A stretch of DNA of 64,000 bases from Candidatus Heimdallarchaeota archaeon (lineage in GTDB: Archaea; Asgardarchaeota; Heimdallarchaeia; JABLTI01). Positions 28,569 through 43,030 of the stretch are shown one piece after another; position 1 is the stretch's first letter, and each line of letters opens with the position of its first letter. Below the pieces are notes generated by a model that saw only the letters and a list, made by a program, of their open reading frames with translations, searched no databases and was not told the DNA's origin. Made by a program: the position numbers and the translations under genes. Location: NCBI GenBank assembly GCA_018238155.1, contig JABCTZ010000046.1, positions 288,001 through 352,000 of the forward strand, given 5' to 3'.

Positions 28569-31500
28569 GTGGTGAGAGATTTGGTCGAAGATCAAAATGT
28601 TAGGAGATTTATGGGAACTCAATTAGTGGAAGAAGAAATTCAAGCTTTAAAACAACTTGAGAATGAAATGAGCAATCCAGTTTTTTTGAGCATCAATATT
28701 GGAAATAAACTAGATGTTGTTATCAAAAAGGATATTAAAAGCAAAATACCTTTTTTGAAAGTTATCACCTTTAAAGTGGAAGGTAATCATGTAACAGATC
28801 TTTATATGAAAAATATTTGGGCGGATAAGATACCCAAATGTATTCTTAAGTTTAAAGAAATCAAATCTATAAGTTTGATACATTTTTCAAAATTAAAATC
28901 ATTTCCTCAAGTGATTTGTTATTTAAAAAAATTAGAAATTCTTTATTTAGAAAAGTGCTCGATAAACGATATCCCCGAAGAAATTGGTGAGCTATCAAAG
29001 TTAAAGAAAATAGTTTTTAAAAATTGCTACAAATTTAGTGAAATTCCTACCAGTTTTGCAAATTTAAAAGAGCTTTATGAATTTAAATCTTTAAACACGC
29101 TTTCAAATAATGAGCAATTTGAACAAATTTTGAAATGTAAAAATATCTCAGAATTATCAATTATTGGCAGCAAAATAGAATCAATTCCAAAATCTCTTTT
29201 CAATCTTCTAAAATTAAGATATCTCAATTTATCTTACAGTAAGATTTCAACATTACCAAGTGCTATCCGAAGGTTGACAAATTTAGAGGAATTAATTCTA
29301 AATAATACCAATTTGAAGAATATACCAGTTGGGATAGGAAATTGCACCAATTTAAGATTATTAAAACTAGATTATAATAAAATAATAAGTGTTCCTGAGA
29401 GTTTATTAAAATTGAAGAATCTTGAGGAAACTCCCACAATAAAAAAATTAAAACAACAGATAACAGGCGAAAAGAAACTAGAAACAAAGCAAGAAGAAAA
29501 AAAATCAGAAGAGAAATCTGAGAAAAGTACAGATACAAAAGTTGGTCTATACATCAAGAAATTAGTTTACAAAGATGAAATACTTGTTTTAGAAGAACTT
29601 GACAAAATGTGTGGAGATAAAATTAGTTTTTTCAAAATTGAAAATTATCACGTTACAATGTTAAGTCTGATGAGGAAAAATTACAACGCTACTCCTCAAT
29701 CATCTCTACCTGAATCAATAGGAAAGTTAGTGGAATTAAAATACTTGAATTTTAGTAAAACTACATTCTCAACCTTGCCAGACAGTATTGGAAATCTTAA
29801 GAAATTAGAGGAATTCAAATTTTCAGAGTCACACATTGAAGAACTCCCAGAGGAAATTTGTCTTTGTAAAGAAATAATGATAATGGAAGCAGAAGAAGGA
29901 AAACTAACTAAATTACCTCAGAATATTGGCAATTTAACAAAATTAACTAGCTTGATTTTGAGTAAAAATGAAATAAACGCTTTACCTGAGAGTATAGGGA
30001 AATTAAAGAACCTTGAAACTTTTCGAATAGATAAAAATCGACTCACAAACCTTCCAAAATCCTTTGCCAATCTTATTCGATTAAAGGAATGCAACTTGGA
30101 AGGAAATACAATTGAAAATATACCTGGTGGTTTTGAACATTTTTCGCAATTGGAGTCACTTCTCCTTATAGGAAATAACATAAAATTCATTTCAAGAAAA
30201 ATAGAGGATTTTGAACAGCTAAAGAAGATTGAAATTGATTATTTGCAATTGAGAGATATAACCGCCTTATTGAGAAAGGATGCTGATGCACAACAAATAT
30301 TGACCAATATTGATCAAATTGCACCAATTTATAAAGATCTTCTGTTAATAGACAAATTGCACCAATCTAAAACTTTGGTTAAAGCAAATTTTAGAAAAAT
30401 CGATATATTAGATAATCAACAATTATTTGAACCTCTTCTCAGAAAAGTAGAAGAAATTGCAAACGATGTGGAAGAATTCAGGAGAATTGATATTTCAGAT
30501 ATCAAGGAAGAGGATAAGGTATTAATTTCTTCATTAATCAAAACTATCACAGAAACTAATCCCAATTTTGTTAGAACTTTAGATGAGAATTTAGTATATA
30601 GTATATCCAAAATAGCCTTTAAAGTTAACTTGAAGAAAGAAGCTGAAGCTCTGAGTAGAGCTGTTTTGCAGAAGAACAACCAAGATGTAAATCATTTAAA
30701 ATTAATTGGTAATTTATTAAATGAGAAAAAACGCTATATTGATGAAGAAAAAGTATATTTAACAGCTCTTCACCATCACACCAATGATTTTAGAATTATT
30801 ACAAATTTAGGAAGTAATTTATTCGCACAAAATAGTAATAATGCAATCGAATCAGAAAAATTGTTTCGAAAAGCTTTAGAGATTAATCCAAAGTATAACA
30901 CTGCTTGGATTAAATTGAGTTCAATTTTGAGAACAAAAAAACAGTTGGAAGAAGCAGAAAAAGCTTGTTTACAAGCAATTCAAAATGATCAAGAGGATTA
31001 TTTTGCATGGAATGAATTGGGAAGAGTATACAAAACCTATTATGATCAATACAGGAAAAAAAGAAATGATGAAACTAGCAAAGAAAAAGTAAAGCAGTAT
31101 CAAGAGAAATTTATGGATGCATTTTGGAAATCCTTGAAAATCAAACCAGATAACCCTCAAGCATTAGCGAATATTGCTCACATACATAGTTCAAGTAATG
31201 AATTTGCCAAAGCAATTAAACTTTATAAAAAGATATTGAAAGTTCAACCTCAAAATTATGGAGCATTGATGAGCCTTTCTATTATCTATATTCAAAAGAA
31301 TGAATTCGATAATGCAGCAACAATGTGTGATGAAGCATTAAAAATTAGACCTGATACAAAGAAAAATCCAATCGTACATCTACTCTTTAGGCAAGGGTAT
31401 GTATTTGAGCCCTTAAAAGAAAATGAGCTAGGTGAATATCACAATATTAAGTTAGCTAAAAATGAAATTCAAAAACTGACTGATATAGAAGAAGTGATAG

Positions 31501-31877
31501 GAGAACCACTTGTTAGAAAAATTTGTGATAGATGGGATTTTACTCGAGTAAAAAAACACTTCTTTGAACGAATAATGGGATCACCCCAAAATGCATCTCA
31601 AGGAAAATTTGTTGAAGGACCAAATTTTGATCTAGAAGATTTTCGTATTAGCTCACTTGATTTGGGTTATTGTAATTTGAGTGATCTACCAGCAAGTATC
31701 GGAAATCTCTATAATTTGAAAAGAATAAATTTAGAGCAGAATAAACTAAAGACCTTACCTAAATCATTTTTCCATATGGAAAAATTGCAAGTTATTCGTT
31801 TAACAAACAATCCTGATTTTATTTTTGATAAGAAAACTAAAAAATTGGAACAAAAGGGATGTGAAATAATAAAATGA
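28569..31877 (+). CDS. LRR-LRR-TPR-LRR repeat protein
   Basis: Many LPxxIGNLxxLxxLxLxxN repeats in three blocks, with a TPR block (ALEINPKYNTAW, IKPDNPQAL, VQPQNYGAL) between blocks 2 and 3. Confidence 0.9.
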   Translation: MVRDLVEDQNVRRFMGTQLVEEEIQALKQLENEMSNPVFLSINIGNKLDVVIKKDIKSKIPFLKVITFKVEGNHVTDLYMKNIWADKIPKCILKFKEIKSISLIHFSKLKSFPQVICYLKKLEILYLEKCSINDIPEEIGELSKLKKIVFKNCYKFSEIPTSFANLKELYEFKSLNTLSNNEQFEQILKCKNISELSIIGSKIESIPKSLFNLLKLRYLNLSYSKISTLPSAIRRLTNLEELILNNTNLKNIPVGIGNCTNLRLLKLDYNKIISVPESLLKLKNLEETPTIKKLKQQITGEKKLETKQEEKKSEEKSEKSTDTKVGLYIKKLVYKDEILVLEELDKMCGDKISFFKIENYHVTMLSLMRKNYNATPQSSLPESIGKLVELKYLNFSKTTFSTLPDSIGNLKKLEEFKFSESHIEELPEEICLCKEIMIMEAEEGKLTKLPQNIGNLTKLTSLILSKNEINALPESIGKLKNLETFRIDKNRLTNLPKSFANLIRLKECNLEGNTIENIPGGFEHFSQLESLLLIGNNIKFISRKIEDFEQLKKIEIDYLQLRDITALLRKDADAQQILTNIDQIAPIYKDLLLIDKLHQSKTLVKANFRKIDILDNQQLFEPLLRKVEEIANDVEEFRRIDISDIKEEDKVLISSLIKTITETNPNFVRTLDENLVYSISKIAFKVNLKKEAEALSRAVLQKNNQDVNHLKLIGNLLNEKKRYIDEEKVYLTALHHHTNDFRIITNLGSNLFAQNSNNAIESEKLFRKALEINPKYNTAWIKLSSILRTKKQLEEAEKACLQAIQNDQEDYFAWNELGRVYKTYYDQYRKKRNDETSKEKVKQYQEKFMDAFWKSLKIKPDNPQALANIAHIHSSSNEFAKAIKLYKKILKVQPQNYGALMSLSIIYIQKNEFDNAATMCDEALKIRPDTKKNPIVHLLFRQGYVFEPLKENELGEYHNIKLAKNEIQKLTDIEEVIGEPLVRKICDRWDFTRVKKHFFERIMGSPQNASQGKFVEGPNFDLEDFRISSLDLGYCNLSDLPASIGNLYNLKRINLEQNKLKTLPKSFFHMEKLQVIRLTNNPDFIFDKKTKKLEQKGCEIIK

Positions 31878-32824
31878 ATAATGACTACGATCTAATAGAT
31901 GAAAGCAAAATCGATTCTGTAGATTATCATTTCATTCAAGATTTTAAACTCTATTTAGGAGAAAATCTACAAAAAAGGCAAATCAAAATTCAGAATGGGA
32001 GAATTGTTAAGATAGATTTATGGCATGAGAAAAAAAGAGGAAATTTTCCGGAAAATATTGGAGATCTAACTGAACTTCTCATTCTAAATTTAGTAAACAT
32101 AGACTTGAAGAATCTACCAGATTCGATTGGAAAATTACTTAATCTTGAGGAAATGAATATCTCATCCAATCATCATATTAGATTATTAGATTCAATTGGA
32201 AATCTAACAAGATTAAAAAAACTCAATATGAGTAGATGTAATCTAACTGAATTACCAAAATCATTTGGAAATTTACTAAATTTAGAATGTCTTAATTTAG
32301 AATTTAATAATTTAAATCAGCTACCAAATAATTTTGGCAATCTACAAAAGTTAGAAATTTTGGATTGTGAAAATAATAAACTAACAACACTCCCTGATTC
32401 ATTTTTTCGATTAAAGAATCTATCACGGTTGAATTTAAGAAATAATCCGTTAAAGGTTCTTTCAAACGAGATTATCAATTTTATAAATTATCGAAAATCA
32501 TTGAACCCAGAGAAATGGATGATTTGTCAATATTGTAAAAGAACAATAACTAATTTTGAAAGAAAAGGTTCAGAACCATGGTGTATTTCGTGTGGCTTGG
32601 ATGATGTCAATGTTTATAACGAATATGGATTCAATCTTCCACCCAATTTACTGAAAGACGAGAATTCCTTGAGTACTAAAGGTATAAAAATTTGCATGTA
32701 TTGTGGAGGTCCTGCAGATTATTTCTGCCCAAAATGTCAAAAAAATGCGATTTGTGAATTTGAGGGTGATTCCTATTGTCCCTACTGTGGAACAGAAGGG
32801 CAATGGGAAGAAATAATCAAGTGA
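31874..32824 (+). CDS. LRR protein with Cys-rich C-terminal zinc-finger-like domain
   Basis: LRR array, then CQYC, CISC, CMYC, CPKC, CPYC; ATGA overlap with the upstream gene. Confidence 0.85.
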   Translation: MNNDYDLIDESKIDSVDYHFIQDFKLYLGENLQKRQIKIQNGRIVKIDLWHEKKRGNFPENIGDLTELLILNLVNIDLKNLPDSIGKLLNLEEMNISSNHHIRLLDSIGNLTRLKKLNMSRCNLTELPKSFGNLLNLECLNLEFNNLNQLPNNFGNLQKLEILDCENNKLTTLPDSFFRLKNLSRLNLRNNPLKVLSNEIINFINYRKSLNPEKWMICQYCKRTITNFERKGSEPWCISCGLDDVNVYNEYGFNLPPNLLKDENSLSTKGIKICMYCGGPADYFCPKCQKNAICEFEGDSYCPYCGTEGQWEEIIK

Positions 32825-32987
32825 ATGGGATTTGCATATATCATTGATTTCAAAAAAAATACTTTATTTGATAAAAAAAGAACATTTAATTTCAAAATTA
32901 ACATTTGTCTAAAAGCAATTTAATACTTGATTAACTTGATTTAAAAAAAATATTTTTTGTAGAAACAATGGATTAATTTTGTAGGAA

Positions 32988-33542
32988 TTGGAATCAATGG
33001 CAGATAATGAAATGAAGAGATTTATTATTATGTTATTAGGTGATAAGTTTGAAGGAGAAAGATCACTTCGAGAGAGAATTGGTGTATCTAATCCTCTCGA
33101 TCAAATAATGTGTGTGGGCGGTTTTTCAACAGCAATTAATATCTTTAAAATCAATAATGAAAAAATCAAATTTGAAATACGAACTGTAAATAGTTCGAAG
33201 TCATTCGAGACTATGAGAAAGACATATTATCCTGGAGCAACTGGAGCAATTCTAGTCTTTGATAATACAAATCAAAACTATACTAGTAACGTACTTGAAA
33301 TGTGGTTAAAAGAACTAAGGGTAGTTAATAGAAAAATGGCTGTAGTTCTTGTTAACAATTTAATAGATAGAGAAGGTAAGGAGTTAATTGTAGATGTTGA
33401 AGAAATGGTTGAGAGACTTTCAATGAAATACAAATTAGAAATTACTGCTTTTGAAATTAAAGCAATCACAACAGAATTTATTGATAAAATATTGCTAACT
33501 CTTGGTGAAAAAATTATTCTACGACAAGAAAAAACCATTTGA
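32988..33542 (+). CDS. Rab/Ras-like small GTPase fold, degenerate (pseudo-GTPase)
   Basis: FETMRKTYYPGATGAILVFDNTN and WLKEL are typical of Rab-like proteins; G1 reads GDKFEGERS, G3 DxxG is absent, G4 reads NNLID. Confidence 0.75.
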   Translation: MESMADNEMKRFIIMLLGDKFEGERSLRERIGVSNPLDQIMCVGGFSTAINIFKINNEKIKFEIRTVNSSKSFETMRKTYYPGATGAILVFDNTNQNYTSNVLEMWLKELRVVNRKMAVVLVNNLIDREGKELIVDVEEMVERLSMKYKLEITAFEIKAITTEFIDKILLTLGEKIILRQEKTI

Positions 33543-33580
33543 ATCTAAAGGTAAACAAATTATTCTTTTATCGAAAAAAG

Positions 33581-33596
33581 AGAAATGCTTAAAACT
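33581..33596 (+). promoter_or_regulatory. Putative BRE/TATA promoter of tRNA-Met
   Basis: AGAAATGCTTAAAA about 40-55 nt upstream of the mature tRNA 5' end. Confidence 0.4.
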
Positions 33597-33635
33597 GAAT
33601 AGGTTAAGAAAAAACCATAACCTCTAGGCAACAAT

Positions 33636-33808
33636 GTCGAGGTAGCTTAGCTTGGTTACGGATGTCCACGCGTGCACGTTCGCCAGAATGGGCGCCTGAC
33701 TCATAATCGAAATCTCACAGTGGCCAGATTTGATGGGACATCAGGAGGTCGCGGGATCGAAAATCCATTAACATTTTTAATGGTTCGGTTTGCCCGCCCT
33801 CGACACCA
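33636..33808 (+). tRNA. tRNA-Met(CAT), elongator type, with three BHB introns (~33658-33688, 33706-33739, 33762-33791) and encoded CCA
   Basis: Acceptor GTCGAGG/CCTCGAC+A+CCA; anticodon arm CCTGA-CTCATA|A-TCAGG; T-arm GCGGG-ATCGAA|G-CCCGC; each insertion folds into a bulge-helix-bulge. Confidence 0.9.
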
Positions 33809-33922
33809 ATTTTCAACTATCTTTTATTATGATTTTCAATGTGTTTACGATTTGAAATTTAAAATCTATTATGTAACATTTTCAAATTCAGCTACCATTT
33901 GGCAAAAAAATCGTATTGTTAG

Positions 33923-35038
33923 CTAATTGAAGAACTCGCATATATCTCTAGTTTTAGTTATACTATCATAAGTTTCATCTAAATCCTCAACGGAGCTTTG
34001 ATAAACATTCTTAGGTAAGATGAAAAATGTATCTTCATTATTTTCAATAATCTGCAATACATAAGAAATCAATTTATCTACTTCAATATTATACATAGAT
34101 CCTCGAGCACCGTAAAAACTACAATTGATAGCACTAAGAGCTTGACCAAACTTTAGAGCATTATCGATTAGGTTTTTGTCAAGATTCTGAATTCCTGCTA
34201 GACCTTTTCTCGCTAATTGATTGATAATTCCAGCAGTACACCAATCTCCAGCACCTGCTGTATCATGTATGTTAGCGATTGGAAAGGACTTAACAAATTG
34301 CCAATTAGAATCTTTTCTTCTATACTTTAAACCATCTGCTCCAAGGGTAACAATTTCGAGATCGGGCAGAGATTTTAGTTCAATTATATCCTCAATAACT
34401 AAATTGGTATCATTTCTCTGATTTGAGTATTTCAGAACATTGCTGAGCTCAATTGCTTTCCTCATTTTTTTTGTATCTTTAACGACTTGAGGTTCAAATA
34501 TTATTAGAGTACCCTCACCAGCAAATTTCTCCGCCATTTTGAGTATACTAGGAGCAATACGATCAAAGTAAAAAACATCGGGAATAGTTTTAATTTTGGG
34601 TAATAAATCACTATATTGTTTTAGCGTTATAGGTTGAAATCTTGGTAAATAATCACCACAAGTTGGACATCTAAAGCTAAAGGAGTGAGTTGGCGGATTT
34701 TTATTTAGATTTATTTTTTCTATCACAACAGGTATTGAGTTTGAATCTGTTCTAACAAGGAAATCCGTTTTCACATTCCATTTTTCTAAATCTTCGAGCA
34801 TTATTTCTACTAAAGGACCTTTACCTAATCTTGCTAACGGATAAGTGTTCCAACCCAAATAGGATAAGATTGTTAGGATATTACCACATGAACCACCAGC
34901 TGCGGTAGAGAATTGTTCTAATGTGGAACCATTCCTCTTATAGATGATATCTAATGCTACTAAACCACTACCATAGATTATTGGTTTTTTTAGTATAGTT
35001 GAATCATCTTGTAAATCATTATTCATAATAACATTCAC
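33923..35038 (-). CDS. PfkB/ribokinase-family kinase with CxxC insertion
   Basis: GSGLVALD, AGGSCGN, VTLGADG, DTAGAGDW; CPTC insert. Confidence 0.88.
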   Translation of the reverse strand: MNVIMNNDLQDDSTILKKPIIYGSGLVALDIIYKRNGSTLEQFSTAAGGSCGNILTILSYLGWNTYPLARLGKGPLVEIMLEDLEKWNVKTDFLVRTDSNSIPVVIEKINLNKNPPTHSFSFRCPTCGDYLPRFQPITLKQYSDLLPKIKTIPDVFYFDRIAPSILKMAEKFAGEGTLIIFEPQVVKDTKKMRKAIELSNVLKYSNQRNDTNLVIEDIIELKSLPDLEIVTLGADGLKYRRKDSNWQFVKSFPIANIHDTAGAGDWCTAGIINQLARKGLAGIQNLDKNLIDNALKFGQALSAINCSFYGARGSMYNIEVDKLISYVLQIIENNEDTFFILPKNVYQSSVEDLDETYDSITKTRDICEFFN

Positions 35039-36173
35039 CCTCTAACCAAATTGCAAAGTGCTCACTTTCAATTTGATTATGATTATCCAGATCTTTGTCT
35101 GTAATATTATAACCTTTTGCTTCAGTATAAGCTATACCAACATTACTTTTATTATTTTCGTGACAAGAGTAAACTGCAAGTAGTGCTCCTAGTGATAAGA
35201 TTTTACTGGATAATGGTGAAATAACAAACTGACAACCTTCTAATAAAGCCAATGTCTTTTCATATTTTCTAATTGTAGCTAAAATTATTCTATATACATC
35301 AAAAGGATCTTGCTCAGCTGCATAGAGAATCTGATCTTTGCTTTTAATTACTTCTTTAAATTCTTTGTAAATATCATCACCTCTTCTTGGGTTTTTAGAA
35401 GGAAAAGGGAGAATATAACAAATATCTTTTGGTGTTATCAGAGAGCTAATTTCATTGTACTGTTCAGTTTTTTGTTCTCCTAAAATTGGAATCCAAATTT
35501 TTGGAATATGATCTTTAGATTGATTTTTCAAATCTCCTTCTAATCCCAACATATATTGAGCTTTTACTACTTCTTTTGGGTGAACACTAATATCATATTT
35601 TGAGCTTTCTGTGATTAGCACAAATAAGTTCTTTTTACTCACATTGTTATTATTGAAATTTTCAACATATTTAAGTAAAATTTGTATTATCGGAAAGTAT
35701 AAAGAATATGGTATTGCACTTATATCAATTAGAATGTCAGAATAATCTTGGTATAAAGTAGGATTAGTAAATAAATTCCTTATATTTTGAGGTCCTGTTC
35801 TTTTTTTCCCAAGATCATCTATTACCATTTCAATTTTCTCTTCTTTTATTTGAATTTCATTTTTCTTGATTAAATCAATTAATCTGTTGTAATTATCAAT
35901 AATTAAATCATCATGTTTATGAGATGGAGAATTAACCCCCTCGTTGTATTCAATTAATAAACATTCCAACTTTCCTTCAAAATTTAAACCTAATATTTTT
36001 TCTAGACCTATGCACATTCTATGATCAAAACCTTTACCTAAAATGAAAAGTATTTTCCTATCATTCTTTTTAAGAAATTCTTCCCAGAAAATATTGAAAT
36101 CTTTGTTTTTACAAATAAAATTGATTGATTCCCACTTATTATTACAGTTCAATATTTCCATTTTCTTAACCAC
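35019..36173 (-). CDS. Uncharacterised double Rossmann-like (CARF-like/inactive PRTase-like) protein of the putative defence operon
   Basis: ILIDISAIP, WIPILGE, LPFPSKNPRRGD, VISPLSSKILSLG; overlaps both neighbours. Confidence 0.55.
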   Translation of the reverse strand: MVKKMEILNCNNKWESINFICKNKDFNIFWEEFLKKNDRKILFILGKGFDHRMCIGLEKILGLNFEGKLECLLIEYNEGVNSPSHKHDDLIIDNYNRLIDLIKKNEIQIKEEKIEMVIDDLGKKRTGPQNIRNLFTNPTLYQDYSDILIDISAIPYSLYFPIIQILLKYVENFNNNNVSKKNLFVLITESSKYDISVHPKEVVKAQYMLGLEGDLKNQSKDHIPKIWIPILGEQKTEQYNEISSLITPKDICYILPFPSKNPRRGDDIYKEFKEVIKSKDQILYAAEQDPFDVYRIILATIRKYEKTLALLEGCQFVISPLSSKILSLGALLAVYSCHENNKSNVGIAYTEAKGYNITDKDLDNHNQIESEHFAIWLEGECYYE

Positions 36174-38103
36174 CTTTCGCTCTTACCGTATATCCATAAT
36201 TTATCCAATTATGCAATGTTCTTAAAGAAACTTCACGATATCCCCCATATTCCAAAGGTAAACCATATTTAACACAAAGTAAACGGTTAAGATATAGTAC
36301 TAACCAATAAGTTCCTTTACACTTAACTTCTCTTTGTTCAAGAATATTACTAACTAAACAGTTATGTAGAACAGTATTTAATTTCTTATCTTCATTTGTA
36401 GAAAGAACATTGTTTCTATTAAGACGTATTGCATCTTTTGAAGAAATCGCAATTCCAGTAACTCCTGGAGCATATGGAGCATTAGGTTTATCTGTTTCAT
36501 ATTTCGATAATTTTCCAATTGCATCAATTAAATTTCGAATTTCTGTCTCAAATGATAAATTTTGAAAATTTCTTTCTAGAAAGTTATTTGATATACCTCT
36601 CAATAAGTTTTCTTGTGTTTTGGGAGAAAGTTTAGTGACCCTAGCTTTCATAAGATTATTTGTTAAAAATGTATCAAAGAGCTTCTCTGAGATATTTAAA
36701 AATTGTTCAATATTATTTGAAGCAACTTGAGATACTTTTTCCAATCCAAAATAATAAGGTATTTTCTCTTCAATTGAAATTTTAAAAGCAGCAGCTTTCC
36801 TAATTGCAGATGATATTTTTCTCATTGGTTTTTCTTCAACTTGAGAATCTATTAAAGTAGTTTGAATTGAACCTCTTATTTTACGATCATATAGAATTTG
36901 AATAGATCTTAATAATATAATTTTCTCAATTAAAGTATCCAAATTATTTTGTTTGTATTTTTTATCTATTAAAGAAATTTGTTCTTTATAAAAATTCATT
37001 AAAGAATCTATGTTTTCAACTTTTGGAAGTATTCGTTTTTTCAAGTTACTAATTATTTCCTTCCATTTTTCTATTGGTAAATTTTCTTGTAAACTTTCTG
37101 AAAATCGAGAAACCAATATGTGTGAAGATTCATTGATTCTTCTATTAGCTATAGATTTTACTAATTTAATAAATGATGACTTATTATTATACCAGTATTC
37201 ATCTAGATTAATTTCAACAAAATCTCTTTCCATTCTTGAATTTCTATTTCGTGTTGATTTGAAAATTTCATCTTTCTGTAATGATTCTATTCTGCTAGAT
37301 AGCCACCAATTACTTGCTCTATTTTTGAGTAGGAAATTTGATAAATTATTGATTTGATTTTTTGATAATGTATCTACTTCGTCTAACATTATTAATACTG
37401 ATTCATATAATTGGTTGCCATTATAAAGAAAGCATTTGGGATTAAATAGGTGAAAAATCTCATGGAAATTTGGTAGATTTATATTTCCGTTCTTTTCATT
37501 ATATCCATAGATGTTTAGATCCAATGTTTGTTTTTCTAATTGTGAGGCCCATGAAAACAATTCTTTACCAGTACAGTTTGTGGGTATTTCACTTTCAGGA
37601 TTCAATTCTGGAATTTTTAAAATCTTAATTTCAGATAAATCATTAGGGTATAATATACCAGCAAATACAGTTAATCCTTTTAGAAAACTAATTACCAATC
37701 TAGCCATTAATAAACTATAAAAAGCACTTATTTTCATATTTTCAGCAAGAATTTGGTTGGTATCAAAAAGATAATAATCAACCATGGATGTGTATATACC
37801 AAGTTTACTAGGTTTGTTATCAAAGATTTGAAAACTATTAACTTTTACATAGAGTTCATTATGAACTTCATTGTGTCTATTTTCAAATAATGTCATTAAG
37901 CTCTCAGGAGTAAACAGCCTTAGAAAAGTTGTTTTCCCGGAACCAGGAAGACTAAGCATTTTTACAGGACTATTCCATAAATGATTTCGATATTTTAATA
38001 GTAAATCTAATGCTTTTGGTTCAAACAAACTTAGAAAAATACTATCATTTATTTTTTTTTCAGATGCTCTATAAGAGAATGGATTTCTTTCATAAACACT
38101 CAT
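36166..38103 (-). CDS. ORC/CDC6-like (STAND-type) P-loop ATPase
   Basis: N-terminal NPF, Walker A SLPGSGKTT, Walker B LIMLDEVD, helical/WH C-terminus ending YLNRLLCVKYGLP. Confidence 0.75.
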   Translation of the reverse strand: MSVYERNPFSYRASEKKINDSIFLSLFEPKALDLLLKYRNHLWNSPVKMLSLPGSGKTTFLRLFTPESLMTLFENRHNEVHNELYVKVNSFQIFDNKPSKLGIYTSMVDYYLFDTNQILAENMKISAFYSLLMARLVISFLKGLTVFAGILYPNDLSEIKILKIPELNPESEIPTNCTGKELFSWASQLEKQTLDLNIYGYNEKNGNINLPNFHEIFHLFNPKCFLYNGNQLYESVLIMLDEVDTLSKNQINNLSNFLLKNRASNWWLSSRIESLQKDEIFKSTRNRNSRMERDFVEINLDEYWYNNKSSFIKLVKSIANRRINESSHILVSRFSESLQENLPIEKWKEIISNLKKRILPKVENIDSLMNFYKEQISLIDKKYKQNNLDTLIEKIILLRSIQILYDRKIRGSIQTTLIDSQVEEKPMRKISSAIRKAAAFKISIEEKIPYYFGLEKVSQVASNNIEQFLNISEKLFDTFLTNNLMKARVTKLSPKTQENLLRGISNNFLERNFQNLSFETEIRNLIDAIGKLSKYETDKPNAPYAPGVTGIAISSKDAIRLNRNNVLSTNEDKKLNTVLHNCLVSNILEQREVKCKGTYWLVLYLNRLLCVKYGLPLEYGGYREVSLRTLHNWINYGYTVRAKGG

Positions 38104-38118
38104 AACTTATTACACCTA

Positions 38119-39246
38119 TCAACCATGTCTAGTAATTCTTGGAAATAATCCTTTAAATTTCAGATAATCATAACTCCAAAGAATAAATATTGAATTGTTC
38201 GGAGTATTGTGATTTAAAATAACAGGTATCGCACATTCAGCAAAACCCAATTTCAGAATTTGCGATCCACCTTTATCTGTATGTTCACTTTGAACAGCTG
38301 GATCATAATAATCATCTTTTAAAATTAAATCATATATTTTTTCCGAATCAGTTATTGTTATATTATCCTCTAAAATCTGAAGTACTTCAATTCTATATTC
38401 GACATTTGGCTTTCTTTTTAACAGCTCTCTCATATATTTGTCTATATGTCTACGTGCTTTATTCGTTGCGATGCACAAAACAATAACTACTAAATATTTT
38501 CTTTGAAAAAAACCCTTGTTCTTTTCTATTACTTTTATTGATTTGGCAATTTTTCCTTTGAATCTTCTTTTTTTCTTGTCAATAAAACTTTTGCCACTTG
38601 CAGTGAAATCATCAAGTAAAAACAGCACTTCAAATCTATTACGTTTTTTTTCCCTTTTAAGCTTCAAATCATTTTCCTCCACAGGAATCTCTAGTAAACC
38701 TTTTTTCAATTCCTTTTGTAAATCTAGACGTTTATCTCTATTGATATAATATATTGAACAAATTTGCTCGTGACTTATTGAATTTTTCTTATTCTCTCTC
38801 CTAAAATCACCCATCATTGATCCATCACTTAGACCCATGAATAAACATTTTCTAAGGAGAATTTTAAAGTAGGGATCACTAATGTGCTGATTAATTAGAT
38901 ACTTGGGTTTTTTATTTCTATCAGCAACAATATCAATTAGTACTGGTAAAATTGACTTGTAGTAAATTAGCGAAACAAGGTGCAATATTTCTTGACGAGA
39001 TATATAGATTAGTTTACTAGTAATGAAGTCATATGAAATCTTCTTATCATTATCATTATTGAACTGATCCAACCAAATTACAAAACTTTCTAAAAATCGC
39101 ATTCCAATTGAGAAGTTTTGATAATTATCATATTTATATTGTGCAATAGCTCTTAATTCTTTAAGCTCATTTGCTATAGAGCTTTCATTCATCCATAAGA
39201 GAGTTTGCTTTAATATTGCTTCTGCGATTTCTTCGTTTATGTTCAA
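38119..39246 (-). CDS. Phosphoribosyltransferase-like protein (conflict-system PRTase type)
   Basis: PRPP-binding loop FLLDDFTASGKS; GF...HNTPNNS...LW...LFPR C-terminal motifs. Confidence 0.75.
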   Translation of the reverse strand: MNINEEIAEAILKQTLLWMNESSIANELKELRAIAQYKYDNYQNFSIGMRFLESFVIWLDQFNNDNDKKISYDFITSKLIYISRQEILHLVSLIYYKSILPVLIDIVADRNKKPKYLINQHISDPYFKILLRKCLFMGLSDGSMMGDFRRENKKNSISHEQICSIYYINRDKRLDLQKELKKGLLEIPVEENDLKLKREKKRNRFEVLFLLDDFTASGKSFIDKKKRRFKGKIAKSIKVIEKNKGFFQRKYLVVIVLCIATNKARRHIDKYMRELLKRKPNVEYRIEVLQILEDNITITDSEKIYDLILKDDYYDPAVQSEHTDKGGSQILKLGFAECAIPVILNHNTPNNSIFILWSYDYLKFKGLFPRITRHG

Positions 39247-39250
39247 TCCC

Positions 39251-41212
39251 TCACTCCATTTTCAAGTTTAAATGAAATGTATTTTCACCGAATATTATTC
39301 TATTTAAGTAAAATAAAGTTATCGGAACTCCTCTATAACCCATTGGTCCCAAATTCCAACAATTGAAAGGGTTTGAAGAAACCTCATCTACACTTAATGA
39401 TAAGTTTCGATTTAATAAATCAAAATCGTTACCATCTATTGAACCTTTATCACCTATGGTCAAAACAGAATGATTTTTAGCCAATGAATTTTGTATTAAA
39501 TCTATAACCACTGTTTTTGTTACAGTTTTTGGTATTATATCTATAGAATGATCTGAAAGTACCATTTTCACTTCTTTATTTTGTCCAAGTTTTGTATTTA
39601 AGTATGAAAATATCGATAACAAATCACTATTTGGAGCTATTATTGTGAGTTGAGTAGGTTTATGTCTTATATCTTTTTCAAATAGACTAAGATATTTATC
39701 ATCACAAAGTAGTTCATTAATTTCATTAACATATGCATTTATTGAAATGTTATCGAAATCAATCTTTTCTGAAAGAAAACCACAAATACTCCCATTATGA
39801 TAACCAACAAAAATTTTCTCATGATATTCCTTTGGAATTTTCTCTATCAAGTCGCGGTTTAGAGAACCTCCTCTACCTGAAGCAATTCCTATCTTGATAT
39901 TATGATCTATTAAATGTAGAAGATTGCTAACAACATCATCAGCGATACCAATTTTTCTTCTTTCAGAGGGACATAATGTGCCATCAAAATCAAAAACTAT
40001 TCCACCGAATTTTTCTTCTGTAAAACTGGCTTGGTAATCATCGAATGATTTTTTCCAAAAATTTCGAACTTGTTTAGTTGAAAAATCAAAATTTGGGAAT
40101 TTTCTTAAAATATATGCTCTATTTGGTTCTTTTCTCCATAATTGATATTTGCTCAATTCTGAAGTTGTTACTGACATTCGATATAGTTTCCTACCAAATT
40201 CAGGAATACCTTGACTTGAAGGGTCAATATTTCTATAAACACCTGCAAGATTTACTAAAAAATATGTTTTTATAAGTAAATCAATAGCTGATAATGGACC
40301 TTCAGAATATTTGGACTTAAAAATGTATTTTGGAATTTTCTCAGGAATTAATGAGAAAGTTCGTTTGAGATTTTTTTCCGATTTTCTATCAGCAAATGCT
40401 AACAAAGAAGATATTTGCCATTTTTTATCAATCCAATTATGTCTTCCATGTCCAAAATTACGATAATCGCTCAGACTAACATTTCCTAATGCTGATTCAC
40501 TATATTTTGATTCCAAATCAATTGCAGCAAATCTACCCCAATTCCCAAATAATACAATAATTGTATCTTTACAAATAATATGCTTCAAATTATTTCTTAG
40601 TGTGTTTTCAAATTCATCAAAATCTTTTGAATCCAAAGCAAACTCATCAAATTCCTTTGGTAGGAAAAGTATTTTCTTATTTGATTTGTAATAAGCTCGT
40701 AGAAATAAAATACTAAATATTAATATAGAATTAACAGCTAGAAAACCATCTTTTTTTGTAGGTAATTTGAAATTAAAATAAGAAATAATTGTGTAATTAG
40801 AGAATTTGGTTATAATAGGTGCATTTGGATTTGCACACACTACAATAATGTGTTTATGCTCTCTTGCTACTGCTTCATTCAAAACGTTAATTATATCAGT
40901 ATTTTTACCAGAAGTTGTAATTAAGATAACAGCTGAATTTGAGGAAGTATTGGTACTAATATAATCCAAAGGTGTCATTGCTTTGGCAATTTGACTTGTA
41001 AATTCACTATGTAATGAAGAAATATAGCTGGCAACTGAATAAGAACCACCAGAACCAATAACAATTAAAGATTCCTCTTTAATCTTCTTAAGATACTTTA
41101 TCAAATTATCAATAGGGTATTTTGTTGCCCAATTATATGCTTTATCCATTTCCTGTAATCTCGTTCTATATTTAGACATTATTAGCACCAAATTTTTTCT
41201 CTCTTCTAGCAC
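39251..41212 (-). CDS. SIS (sugar isomerase) + HAD-IIB phosphatase fusion
   Basis: IGSGGSY and TTSGKNTD (SIS); DYRNFGHGRH; DFDGTL, ASGRG, IGDKG...GNDF (HAD). Start may be ATG 41179. Confidence 0.85.
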   Translation of the reverse strand: MLEERKNLVLIMSKYRTRLQEMDKAYNWATKYPIDNLIKYLKKIKEESLIVIGSGGSYSVASYISSLHSEFTSQIAKAMTPLDYISTNTSSNSAVILITTSGKNTDIINVLNEAVAREHKHIIVVCANPNAPIITKFSNYTIISYFNFKLPTKKDGFLAVNSILIFSILFLRAYYKSNKKILFLPKEFDEFALDSKDFDEFENTLRNNLKHIICKDTIIVLFGNWGRFAAIDLESKYSESALGNVSLSDYRNFGHGRHNWIDKKWQISSLLAFADRKSEKNLKRTFSLIPEKIPKYIFKSKYSEGPLSAIDLLIKTYFLVNLAGVYRNIDPSSQGIPEFGRKLYRMSVTTSELSKYQLWRKEPNRAYILRKFPNFDFSTKQVRNFWKKSFDDYQASFTEEKFGGIVFDFDGTLCPSERRKIGIADDVVSNLLHLIDHNIKIGIASGRGGSLNRDLIEKIPKEYHEKIFVGYHNGSICGFLSEKIDFDNISINAYVNEINELLCDDKYLSLFEKDIRHKPTQLTIIAPNSDLLSIFSYLNTKLGQNKEVKMVLSDHSIDIIPKTVTKTVVIDLIQNSLAKNHSVLTIGDKGSIDGNDFDLLNRNLSLSVDEVSSNPFNCWNLGPMGYRGVPITLFYLNRIIFGENTFHLNLKME

Positions 41213-41299
41213 ATATATTTGATTGTTATTATTAAAACCAATCGAATGTATCCTTGTTTATTTTACTTAAATAGAGCTAATAAAAAATAAAATTAGTGA

Positions 41300-41626
41300 T
41301 TATTTGAAACATCTTTTGAGCTCATTTTCAAATTCACTTGATGATGAAATAATATGAAACATCTCTAATATCCAAGCAATTTCATTTAAATCTTCAAAAG
41401 TGATTTTTTGAGATATCTTAGATAATTCTTCAGAATATTTTGTGAAATTGTTTACTCTAGTTGTTTGTATAGAGTCATAAATAGTTTCTATTAGTTTTAT
41501 CAGACAATCAAAATCTACGTTAGTTTTATTTCGCTGTTTACCGATTATTGATCCTACTGTTTGCCAAATTTCATTGTCTTCAAAAACAGGTTTCTTGTTT
41601 TTGGTTTTGCTGCACCTCTTTCCTTC
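41300..41626 (-). pseudogene. Start-less open frame, probable gene remnant at island junction
   Basis: 108 sense codons (KKPVFEDNEIWQTVGSII...ELKRCFK*) preceded by an in-frame TGA, with no plausible start near the 5' end. Confidence 0.4.
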
Positions 41627-41665
41627 TCAATTGAAGATGTAGAGCAAAAACCAGTTTCTGGTTCA

Positions 41666-43030
41666 TTAGAATAAACAATTATGAATAGCTTTCACTGTTT
41701 CTTTAACATCTTTTCTTCTAACAATAAAATAGTAAGCGATTTCAGATGCTCCTGCGGAAATCATTTCGATATTAATCCCTTTTTGTGCAACTGCTGTAAA
41801 CACATTGGCAGCCATTCCTGAAGTTTTCATTAAGCCCTCTCCAACAATACCAATTAAGCTAATATCCTCCTCCAAAGTGATATTTTGAATAGTATCACCA
41901 ATTAAATCAGTAATAACCTTGTAGCTCTTCTGTGAATCATTTGGATTGATGAGCAAATTAATGCATGTTTGTGAAGTAATAATTGAATAAATATTAACAT
42001 CAATTTTTGCTAATAGATTACCAATATCACCTATGATACCGGGTTTGAATCCAACACCTGGACCTTGAATTCGCAAAACGGCTATATTGTTATTATATGT
42101 TACACTTTTGATAGAAGGTTTGCTCTTTTCAAATTTTGATAATATTATTGTTCCTTCGTTTTGTGGTTGAGAGAAATTACGAATAGTAACATTTATCTTT
42201 GAGTCTATTAAAGGCTCTAAAGCTCTTGGGTGAAGTATTTTCGCTCCAAAATATGCAAGTTCAGCTGCTTCATAATATGATAATTGATTGATTTTCTTTG
42301 CTGTTTTTACTATCGTAGGATCAGCACTCATAAATCCATCAACATTTTTCCAAAGAATGATTGTTTCAGCCTCTAATCCACATGCTACTACTGTGGCACT
42401 ATAATCTGAACCATTTCTACCGAAAGTGGTAATTTTATTATTTTCAGAACAACCAAAATATCCTGTTATAATCGGTGTAATTCCTTTTTGGATTTTAGGT
42501 AGAAGCTTTTGCTTCAAATTCTTCTTTACAACTGAAATATTAGCTGTTGCATTTTCAAAACAGGAATCTGTTATTATTCCTATTGTATCTGCTTCAAAAG
42601 CAAGAGCAACATGATTTTTATCATTTAAAACCCCTGCTAAAAGTATAGCTGCAAGTCTTTCACCAAAACTCAAAATATGCATTTTAACTGAATCTGTCAC
42701 TTCTTCTGTAAATGCTATTCCATAAAGTAATCGCTCTAATTTTACTATTTTGATATCTAAAGTATCAATTACTTCTTGTCTTATGATATCATTAGTGATT
42801 ATTTCATCAGCAAACTCCCTATGCTTTTTTCGGATGTTTTGAATAATTGGTTCAATATTACTTTCAGATTTTTGTGCGAACTCGATACCATTTAGCAATT
42901 CATTTGTAATGCCATTTACTGCAGAGACGACTAACACACAATCATCTTTCTCATTTTTAACTATCTCAACAACTTTCAGGAAATCTGAAACAGAGCATAA
43001 ACACCCACCACCGAATTTCATAACTTTCAA
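41666..43030 (-). CDS. lysC: Aspartate kinase
   Basis: VMKFGG, VVSAVNGITN, SFGERL, TTFGRNGSDYSA, ELAYFGAKILHP, two ACT domains. Confidence 0.96.
   Translation of the reverse strand: MKVMKFGGGCLCSVSDFLKVVEIVKNEKDDCVLVVSAVNGITNELLNGIEFAQKSESNIEPIIQNIRKKHREFADEIITNDIIRQEVIDTLDIKIVKLERLLYGIAFTEEVTDSVKMHILSFGERLAAILLAGVLNDKNHVALAFEADTIGIITDSCFENATANISVVKKNLKQKLLPKIQKGITPIITGYFGCSENNKITTFGRNGSDYSATVVACGLEAETIILWKNVDGFMSADPTIVKTAKKINQLSYYEAAELAYFGAKILHPRALEPLIDSKINVTIRNFSQPQNEGTIILSKFEKSKPSIKSVTYNNNIAVLRIQGPGVGFKPGIIGDIGNLLAKIDVNIYSIITSQTCINLLINPNDSQKSYKVITDLIGDTIQNITLEEDISLIGIVGEGLMKTSGMAANVFTAVAQKGINIEMISAGASEIAYYFIVRRKDVKETVKAIHNCLF

Follow-up and report, generated by a model that had tools for sequence, protein, structure and literature searches.

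To our knowledge, CARF sensors have so far been understood only downstream of the cyclases of type III CRISPR systems, and it is typical of immune systems that effectors are swapped while the sensor pair stays fixed. Two characterized defence systems bear on the locus described here. In Retron-Eco11, a phosphoribosyltransferase (PRTase) is needed for defence, and activation cuts phosphoribosyl pyrophosphate (PRPP) by about half, with abortive infection; retron PRTases carry the motif G-x14-PNN-x-P (PMC12746101). PUA-Calcineurin-CE-HAD, in which CE stands for conflict effector, has been shown to defend by depletion of deoxynucleoside triphosphates (dNTPs), with a HAD partner enzyme, and senses a methylated nucleotide from degraded host DNA (bioRxiv 10.64898/2026.01.15.699771). 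Here we analyse a stretch of 64,000 nt from a Candidatus Heimdallarchaeota archaeon (assembly GCA_018238155.1, contig JABCTZ010000046.1, positions 288,001–352,000 of the forward strand), referred to in full as the window and numbered from its first letter. It holds a cassette of five genes at 33923–41212 encoding a PRTase, an ORC/CDC6-like ATPase and a tandem CARF protein of the CARF6 family, together with two proteins resembling sugar-phosphate enzymes. We conclude that the cassette is probably a self-contained, horizontally mobile, nucleotide-targeting conflict system of immune type, belonging to the conflict-effector class.

Gene content of the cassette

The five open reading frames (ORFs) lie on the minus strand. 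In order of transcription they encode a SIS-SIS-HAD fusion (39251–41212; 653 residues as listed, assigned from the ORF list and the Pfam families SIS and Hydrolase_3), a PRTase-CE protein (38119–39246; 375 residues; PF24390), an ORC/CDC6-like AAA+ ATPase (36166–38103; 645 residues; PF24389), a stand-alone tandem CARF protein of the CARF6 family (35019–36173; 384 residues; PADLOC model PDLC01910, no Pfam family) and a PfkB-family sugar kinase (33923–35038; 371 residues; PF00294). With the listed starts, successive genes are separated by gaps of 4 and 15 bp or overlap by 8 and 20 bp, so the ORF coordinates bear out the co-orientation and spacing given in the original prediction, which had been made from the sequence alone. 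When homologues are aligned, three genes seem to begin at later ATG codons (SIS-HAD, for instance, at about 41179); these shift the overlaps by a few bases and leave the tight packing unaffected. The catalytic motifs that had been read as intact (DFDGT, DDFTASG, GSGKT/DEVD and DTAGAGD) are all present and fall in invariant columns of the family alignments, which comprise 27–34 homologues.

The PRTase matches PF24390 at 79.1 bits (cut-off 27), with residues 57–370 spanning positions 3–253 of the 253 in the model, which places it in the family to which retron anti-phage effectors belong and confirms its initial naming as a PRTase. PADLOC models labelled PRTase_III-A also match, at 7e-11; from the retron literature we infer that this label refers to retron type III-A. 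In structural alignment, the AlphaFold2 model of the protein (pLDDT 87.9) has type I PRTases (UPRT, HGPRT and OPRT) as its top folds, at Z 8–9.6. A Foldseek search of the PDB with the same model returned nothing at E ≤ 0.001, and PDB sequence searches with the single SIS-HAD and PRTase sequences, and with the PRTase and ATPase profiles, returned nothing useful. Across 29 homologues the PRPP loop DDF.ASG is invariant (D212, D213, S217 and G218). The HNTPNN motif is likewise invariant in the family alignment, as is the retron-type motif formed by G334, 14 residues and P349-N350-N351; the final proline of that motif is an isoleucine here and is not conserved in the family.

The ATPase matches PF24389 at 70.6 bits (cut-off 27) over residues 54–621. 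Its Walker A residues G54, G56 and K57 and Walker B D241 are invariant, D242 is nearly so, and several arginines are invariant or nearly invariant; the profile search of the PDB gave no close solved relative by sequence.

The effector, ATPase and CARF6 recur in methylase operons

We sampled 401 genomes of Bacteroidota, in which the PF24389 ATPases with high scores (134–380 bits) lie in sister operons of four genes, which encode, in order, a DNA methylase (C5 or N6/N4), an effector, the ATPase and a CARF6 protein of about 320 residues. The effector is PRTase-CE in loci L131, L132 and L135, HD-CE in L134 and L136–L138, and a calcineurin-like phosphoesterase with a winged helix-turn-helix in L133. 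The order PRTase, ATPase, CARF6 of the window is the effector–ATPase–CARF6 order of L131, L134 and L137. The constant part across both operon classes is thus effector, ATPase and CARF6, and the window cassette is a branch in which SIS-SIS-HAD and PfkB stand in the methylase's place. The pairing of PRTase-like proteins with ORC/CDC6-like ATPases in conflict operons, which the original prediction had stated, is seen in the sister operons. The curated families PF24389–PF24391 have adjacent Pfam accession numbers and share the name CE, which was reportedly introduced by Nicastro, Burroughs, Iyer and Aravind in 2023.

No single named system in PADLOC-DB 2.0 covers the cassette: the PRTase and CARF6 match models belonging to different sets, and SIS-HAD, the ATPase and PfkB have no match at E ≤ 0.1. 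In the literature consulted we found no description of the five-gene cassette. The original prediction knew of no experimentally described system with this composition, and we found no experimental description either; the core triad, however, is not unknown. Because that triad has curated Pfam and PADLOC models and recurs in sister operons, the cassette is a variant of a computationally catalogued class and not a wholly new composition.

CARF6 is predicted to dock on the PRTase

The CARF6 protein matches PDLC01910 at 1.2e-92, and its AlphaFold2 model has a pLDDT of 91.5. In an exhaustive structural alignment Can1 ranks first among solved folds (6sce; Z 15.3, with 230 residues aligned across the two CARF halves), followed at Z 10–13 by Csm6, Cam1, Can2, Card1 and Csa3; further matches include Csx1-Crn2, the Sso2081 ring nuclease, a viral SAVED ring nuclease and SAVED domains. 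Foldseek, which had been proposed as the check for this 384-residue protein, returned from the PDB only generic tandem Rossmann proteins (USP, KaiC and KCC tails) at a TM score of about 0.2. The CARF-like assignment is thus carried by the PADLOC match and by the first rank of Can1 in the exhaustive alignment, and the model indicates a single-chain double CARF without an effector domain.

The invariant residues of CARF6 form two groups. The first (G46/G48/D50/R52, D150/S152, G232 and S323/K324) lies, in each half, on the loops that follow strands 1 and 4; these loops correspond to the canonical CARF ligand-pocket positions, where a putative ligand would bind. The second consists of a patch at residues 256–292 and the C terminus.

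We predicted the complex of PRTase and CARF6 with each protein entered as an alignment, in three runs alongside three controls. The interface score ipSAE was 0.90 in all three runs and 0.00 for the controls; in calibration, 58 of 80 solved complexes and 2 of 110 mismatched pairs attained that mark. The three runs share at least 95% of their contacts, with partner pLDDT values of at least 86. On the CARF6 side the predicted interface comprises residues 257–292 and 376–384, that is, the conserved patch, with the invariant residues P256, R263, D266, E287, P290 and F291 and the nearly invariant P258, P262, Y284, W376 and Y382; on the PRTase side it comprises the N-terminal helical part, with the conserved residues K38, L79 and F81. 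Because we know of no solved CARF–PRTase complex, it is unlikely that the pair passed through the memory of the model. The predicted contact supports a split CARF-effector, in which the sensor would hold the enzyme.

The five genes are co-conserved and mobile

A pattern search for CARF6 relatives, with one genome taken per species, found them in at least 122 species. At the 80 loci kept, the gene order of the window is found on one strand wherever the contig allows (74–80 of 80 loci for each gene), and the sugar enzymes are always accompanied by the PRTase, ATPase and CARF6. The conservation of the five-gene order, which the original prediction had put forward as something to check, is therefore strict. 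The bacterial carriers span at least eight phyla (Bacteroidota, Planctomycetota, Acidobacteriota, Bacillota, Cyanobacteriota, Chloroflexota, Nitrospirota and Verrucomicrobiota), and the archaeal carriers four lineages (Methanoregula, Bathyarchaeia, Nitrosopumilus and Heimdall-type archaea). In a tree of the ATPase, several phyla need three or four origins and archaeal sequences are scattered among bacterial ones; the window sequence groups with two Heimdall-labelled sequences on long branches. A separate protein search with the ATPase profile, which was filled up by candidates, yielded at least 9 matches.

The flanks of the cassette vary, the commonest neighbouring family being found at 10 of the 80 loci. 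The recurrent families are tyrosine integrase, MobA/VirD2 relaxase, NikA/MobC, an excisionase-like helix-turn-helix protein, TraG and RteC. The CARF6 gene is carried by 19 plasmids, nine of them conjugative, and many of the plasmid matches come from Rhizobium and Agrobacterium; in the one plasmid examined, from Sulfitobacter, the five genes are flanked by the coupling-protein gene and virB11. Among 60 directly adjacent genes at 30 loci, several match defence models (BrxL, BrxHI, DrmD, PtuA, a GajB-like helicase, a type I methylase, SoFic, mad2 and AbiC), from systems that include BREX, DISARM, Septu and Gabija-like ones, a count for which there is no control rate. No recurrent transporter or sugar-use regulator was found by clustering the flanks at the 80 loci or by a Pfam scan of the 60 adjacent genes, so the sugar-catabolic setting with transporters that the original prediction had named as contrary evidence does not appear in the flanks examined.

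Two relatives show unusual gene structures. In the cassette of the closest CARF6 relative (P0002, 65% identity), the PRTase gene is split into pieces of 241 and 45 residues; its neighbours encode MazE, a NucS/PDDEXK nuclease and Nmad2, and there is a faint RAMP match. A search for longer, fused forms of CARF6 found one case: in one assembly, CARF6 and PfkB form a single protein of 740 residues (P0130), either a natural fusion or the outcome of a lost stop between overlapping genes. As this may be an assembly or frameshift artefact, we set it aside as evidence.

An inserted island beside an intron-rich tRNA gene

In a genome of the same genus (G009, locus L092), a homologue of the tRNA-like gene described below is followed by 50 bp and then by a homologue of window positions 41297–41585; the window has 7,483 bp in place of the 50 bp. 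The G009 locus is an empty site, and this comparison delimits the inserted island at 33814–41296. A search of 40 relatives, 10 of them in the same genus, gave no CARF6 gene. These observations support horizontal acquisition. No mobility gene was found in the window's copy of the island among the Pfam domains of the five genes and their neighbours.

The island was also said to be more AT-rich than its flanks. At 28.4% GC, against 32.0% for the whole window, it falls in the bottom 3% of 7.5-kb windows; the right flank has 34.8% and the left flank 28.3%. The claim stands, with a modest difference, for the window and the right flank and fails for the left flank, which is as AT-rich as the island.

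On the unspliced sequence, neither Aragorn nor Rfam, at the gathering threshold and at E ≤ 1, calls a tRNA beside the island; Rfam has no match at the gathering threshold in the window and none of relevance at E ≤ 1 in 32800–42000. Splicing trials and conservation nevertheless point to a tRNA-Met(CAT)-like gene with three putative introns at 33636–33808 on the plus strand. This stretch has a 7-bp acceptor stem with ACCA, an arm with a CAT anticodon and a T stem, broken by three segments, the putative introns, in the D loop, the anticodon loop and the T loop. Of about 330,000 splice variants from which three segments had been taken out, 7,702 were recognized by Aragorn as a tRNA, for the most part Met(CAT); the same trials called no tRNA in three shuffles or in two other natural stretches of the window. 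The stretch is 79–94% identical in 9 of 11 genomes of the same family. Its CCA end lies at 33808, 114 bp from the stop of the PfkB gene, so that the reported distance from the end of the cassette to a tRNA 3′ end is recovered.

The gene remnant reported on the other side is likewise found. An open frame of 108 codons without a start codon (41300–41626, minus strand) is 84% identical at the DNA level to an intact ORF of 117 residues in G009 (L092, 7593–7946), to which no function is assigned, and is a 5′-truncated homologue of it.

A 14-nt exact direct repeat (33877–33890, plus strand, and 41323–41336) brackets the five genes. We rejected it as evidence for attachment sites because the same 8 kb holds two further 14-mers that recur exactly, which puts it at chance level, and alignment of the junctions gives no longer repeat that could represent a duplication left by site-specific integration.

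Beyond the tRNA-like gene, a block at 28407–33553 on the plus strand encodes a leucine-rich repeat (LRR) and tetratricopeptide repeat protein of 1102 residues, an LRR protein of 316 residues with a zinc ribbon and a Ras/Roc-type GTPase of 184 residues. This block is absent from G009, where the malic-enzyme gene abuts the tRNA, and is a second variable insertion. As the island and this block are both missing in G009, both sides of the tRNA are variable.

The flanking enzymes resemble sugar-phosphate enzymes

The SIS-HAD protein matches the Pfam families SIS and Hydrolase_3 above their cut-offs. Its profile, built from 29 homologues, finds NagB-II/GlmS-type chains (8eol and 3hba) at E 8e-6 over positions 30–233, which makes the double-SIS part resemble isomerases and deaminases of sugar phosphates. 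In the SIS region, GSGGS, E239 and H255 are invariant; E239 and H255 are 16 residues apart, a pair that may correspond to the catalytic Glu and His of GlmS, which have this spacing. The profile of the HAD region matches HAD-IIB sugar phosphatases, with 32.1 bits for PF08282 (cut-off 20.9) and 36.1 bits for TIGR01484, which is under its cut-off of 41.8. HAD motifs I–IV are invariant (D408, D410, G411, T412, S450, K566, D588 and D596).

The kinase matches PF00294 at 71.7 bits (cut-off 25.8), and its profile matches PH1459, fructokinases and ketohexokinases at E 1e-13 to 1e-8. Of the residues in the GG motif and in D.AGAGD, D265 is almost invariant and G48, G49, D259, G262 and G264 are fully so. 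The family also conserves an insert, H.F.F.CP.CG (residues 118–128 or so; window region 34660–34690), and most homologues have a C-terminal CxxC that is missing in the window's copy, features suggesting a zinc-binding lid.

A nucleotide-targeting conflict system and its alternatives

Our reading of the cassette as a nucleotide-targeting conflict system builds on gene content, strict co-conservation, mobility and intact motifs seen directly in the sequences, and on folds and a PRTase–CARF6 contact supported by models. We infer the immune role in part from the swappable effectors around a fixed ATPase–CARF6 pair, the kinship of the PRTase with retron effectors and the defence genes next to some loci; the scheme that follows is likewise putative as to trigger, ligand, enzyme substrates and direction of regulation. 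The ORC/Cdc6-like AAA+ ATPase would act as a sensor or switch, and the stand-alone double CARF, sitting directly on the effector, as the sensor of a small ligand. Once released, PRTase-CE would drain PRPP or cleave nucleotides at the glycosidic bond, and this loss would starve the invader, and the cell, of nucleotide precursors. The sugar enzymes may act on the phosphoribosyl or sugar-phosphate product, so that the effector reaction could not run backwards or its product would be rendered harmless; or they may synthesize the ligand read by the CARF protein and clear it again. In the original prediction the ATPase senses infection, kinase and phosphatase form an on/off pair and the signal or toxin is a (phospho)ribosyl nucleotide, all of which are hypothetical features.

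Several points weigh against this reading. First, three of the proteins resemble ordinary enzymes of sugar phosphates and are tied to immunity by context only. Second, the cassette encodes neither a Cas10 nor a CD-NTase, and the Cas10 models TIGR02577 and TIGR02578 found nothing in the window's genome, at a completeness of 90.7%. Third, that plasmids and conjugative elements carry the cassette is compatible with a function on behalf of the element and not of the host. Fourth, many of the adjacent genes are housekeeping genes (NrdD, AccA, SRP54 and MnmE), and the rate of defence matches has no control set. Fifth, the complex score expresses the confidence of a model and is not a measurement. 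Sixth, we found no experiment in the literature on the cassette or on any ORC-CDC6-like/CARF6 system, and the experimental anchors, PUA-Calcineurin-CE-HAD and Retron-Eco11, are both indirect. The cassette was also not found in 50,697 phage records, a result that we set beside these points and regard as neutral.

The source of a signal for CARF6 bears on the same question. No cas gene is among the top family tallies for the 60 adjacent genes, and the window's genome has one SMODS match, which lies on another contig (C42; L096, 15728–16072) and not beside the sensor or effector. This SMODS domain, of CD-NTase type, sits in an open frame of 472 residues and may belong to a system resembling cyclic oligonucleotide-based anti-phage signalling (CBASS). 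A specific version of the scheme, which we consider unlikely, is that CARF6 reads a messenger made by neither Cas10 nor a CD-NTase, such as a phosphorylated sugar or a modified (deoxy)nucleotide, which would be written by the cassette's kinase and erased by SIS-HAD; the cassette would then be a self-contained, CRISPR-independent CARF pathway that switches the separate PRTase by direct contact.

The enzymes could instead form a small-molecule factory, in which the PRTase couples a base or amine to PRPP, SIS isomerizes, HAD dephosphorylates and PfkB re-phosphorylates, yielding a modified nucleoside or nucleotide that serves as an antiviral analogue or a signal, with CARF6 and the ATPase merely regulating. 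A PRTase with a HAD phosphatase, turning PRPP into a riboside, has been proposed for Ter-linked operons (PMC7824862), and the pair in the cassette follows this standard logic. All four catalytic centres are invariant, the SIS-SIS part resembles amino-sugar-phosphate enzymes and the kinase resembles ketose kinases, as such a pathway would want. However, in sister operons with the same layout of effector, ATPase and CARF6, hydrolases of HD or calcineurin type can stand in the PRTase's place, and sugar enzymes are lacking; this pattern fits a degradative effector better than a biosynthetic step. No conserved nucleotidyltransferase, base-making enzyme or exporter was found in the flanks of the 80 loci or among the 60 adjacent genes, and we judge a factory of this kind unlikely.

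The mobility of the cassette raises another explanation, that it serves the mobile element: by excluding rival plasmids or elements, by counter-defence, for example with CARF6 soaking up or degrading nucleotides of host immunity, or as an addiction module. The only neighbours that recur are genes for integrase, relaxase and conjugation, the sensor gene is on nine conjugative plasmids, and the plasmid examined has the cassette inside its transfer region; stand-alone CARF proteins, moreover, include ring nucleases, and CARF6 has fold matches to Sso2081 and the viral SAVED ring nuclease. Yet defence systems are also common cargo of such elements, the island in the window is without any mobility gene, and a sponge or ring nuclease needs no PRTase, ATPase and three sugar enzymes in a fixed order, all of which makes service to the element quite unlikely as the function of the cassette.

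Fructoselysine and fructose-asparagine are utilized by pairing a double-SIS enzyme with a PfkB kinase, and Rhizobium and Agrobacterium use Amadori-type opines. Although the SIS and PfkB similarities and the many plasmid matches in these two genera would suit an ordinary pathway that breaks down or salvages a glycated amine, amino sugar or ribosylamine (kinase, deglycase or deaminase, and phosphatase, as in fructosamine utilization, with CARF6 and the ATPase as passengers), this is highly improbable given that the examined flanks have no recurrent transporter or sugar-use regulator, and given sugar enzymes that at the 80 loci always accompany the PRTase, ATPase and CARF6, insertion as an island absent from close relatives, and presence in autotrophs such as Nitrosopumilus.

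On our preferred reading as a conflict system, a double CARF is locked to an ATPase and to swappable nucleotide-targeting effectors across many phyla of both prokaryotic domains, with no cyclase in the cassette. If its ligand and trigger were found, this could define a new branch of nucleotide-based immunity and a role for sugar-phosphate enzymes in such systems, and the predicted CARF6–PRTase contact gives a concrete hypothesis. The insertion, compared with the empty site in the sister genome, shows that such cassettes reach Asgard-type archaea too. The elements new here are this empty site, the intron-rich tRNA, the Heimdall-type clade, the co-linearity of 80 loci, the link to methylase operons and the predicted CARF6–PRTase contact.

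Comparison with known systems

The cassette shares parts with several described systems. With GlmS, NagB-II and FrlB-type deglycases and their PfkB kinases it has in common the SIS-SIS profile match and a kinase resembling fructokinases and ketohexokinases, and its invariant Glu and His may correspond to the GlmS pair; it differs in that a HAD-IIB domain is fused to SIS-SIS and that SIS-SIS is locked in an operon with a PRTase, an ATPase and CARF6. PUA-Calcineurin-CE-HAD likewise combines a nucleotide-targeting CE effector with a HAD phosphatase partner and a ligand-sensing domain, but its sensor is a PUA domain, its effector has another fold and its HAD, which acts on dNTPs, has a C1 cap, whereas the HAD here is of type IIB and resembles sugar phosphatases.

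The CARF6 protein resembles Can1 of type III CRISPR–Cas in having two CARF domains per chain, as a pseudo-dimer, with conserved loops at the canonical pocket. Unlike CARF effectors and SAVED sensors, it has no fused nuclease, and a separate effector is predicted to dock on it. Retron type III-A effectors share with the cassette the PRTase-CE family, the PADLOC models, an intact PRPP loop and G-x14-PNN. The last proline of the retron motif is not kept here, however, and the partners are an ATPase and a CARF protein; no reverse transcriptase domain was found in the five genes or their neighbours, and Rfam gave no relevant non-coding RNA in 32800–42000.

The sister operons have the same three families in the same order and with tight spacing. 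Relative to them, the window cassette lacks a methylase in its five genes and immediate flanks and has SIS-SIS-HAD upstream and PfkB downstream. Its ATPase and PRTase are divergent, scoring 70.6 and 79.1 bits where those of the sister operons score 134–380 and 202 bits, and its CARF6 protein is about 60 residues longer than theirs.

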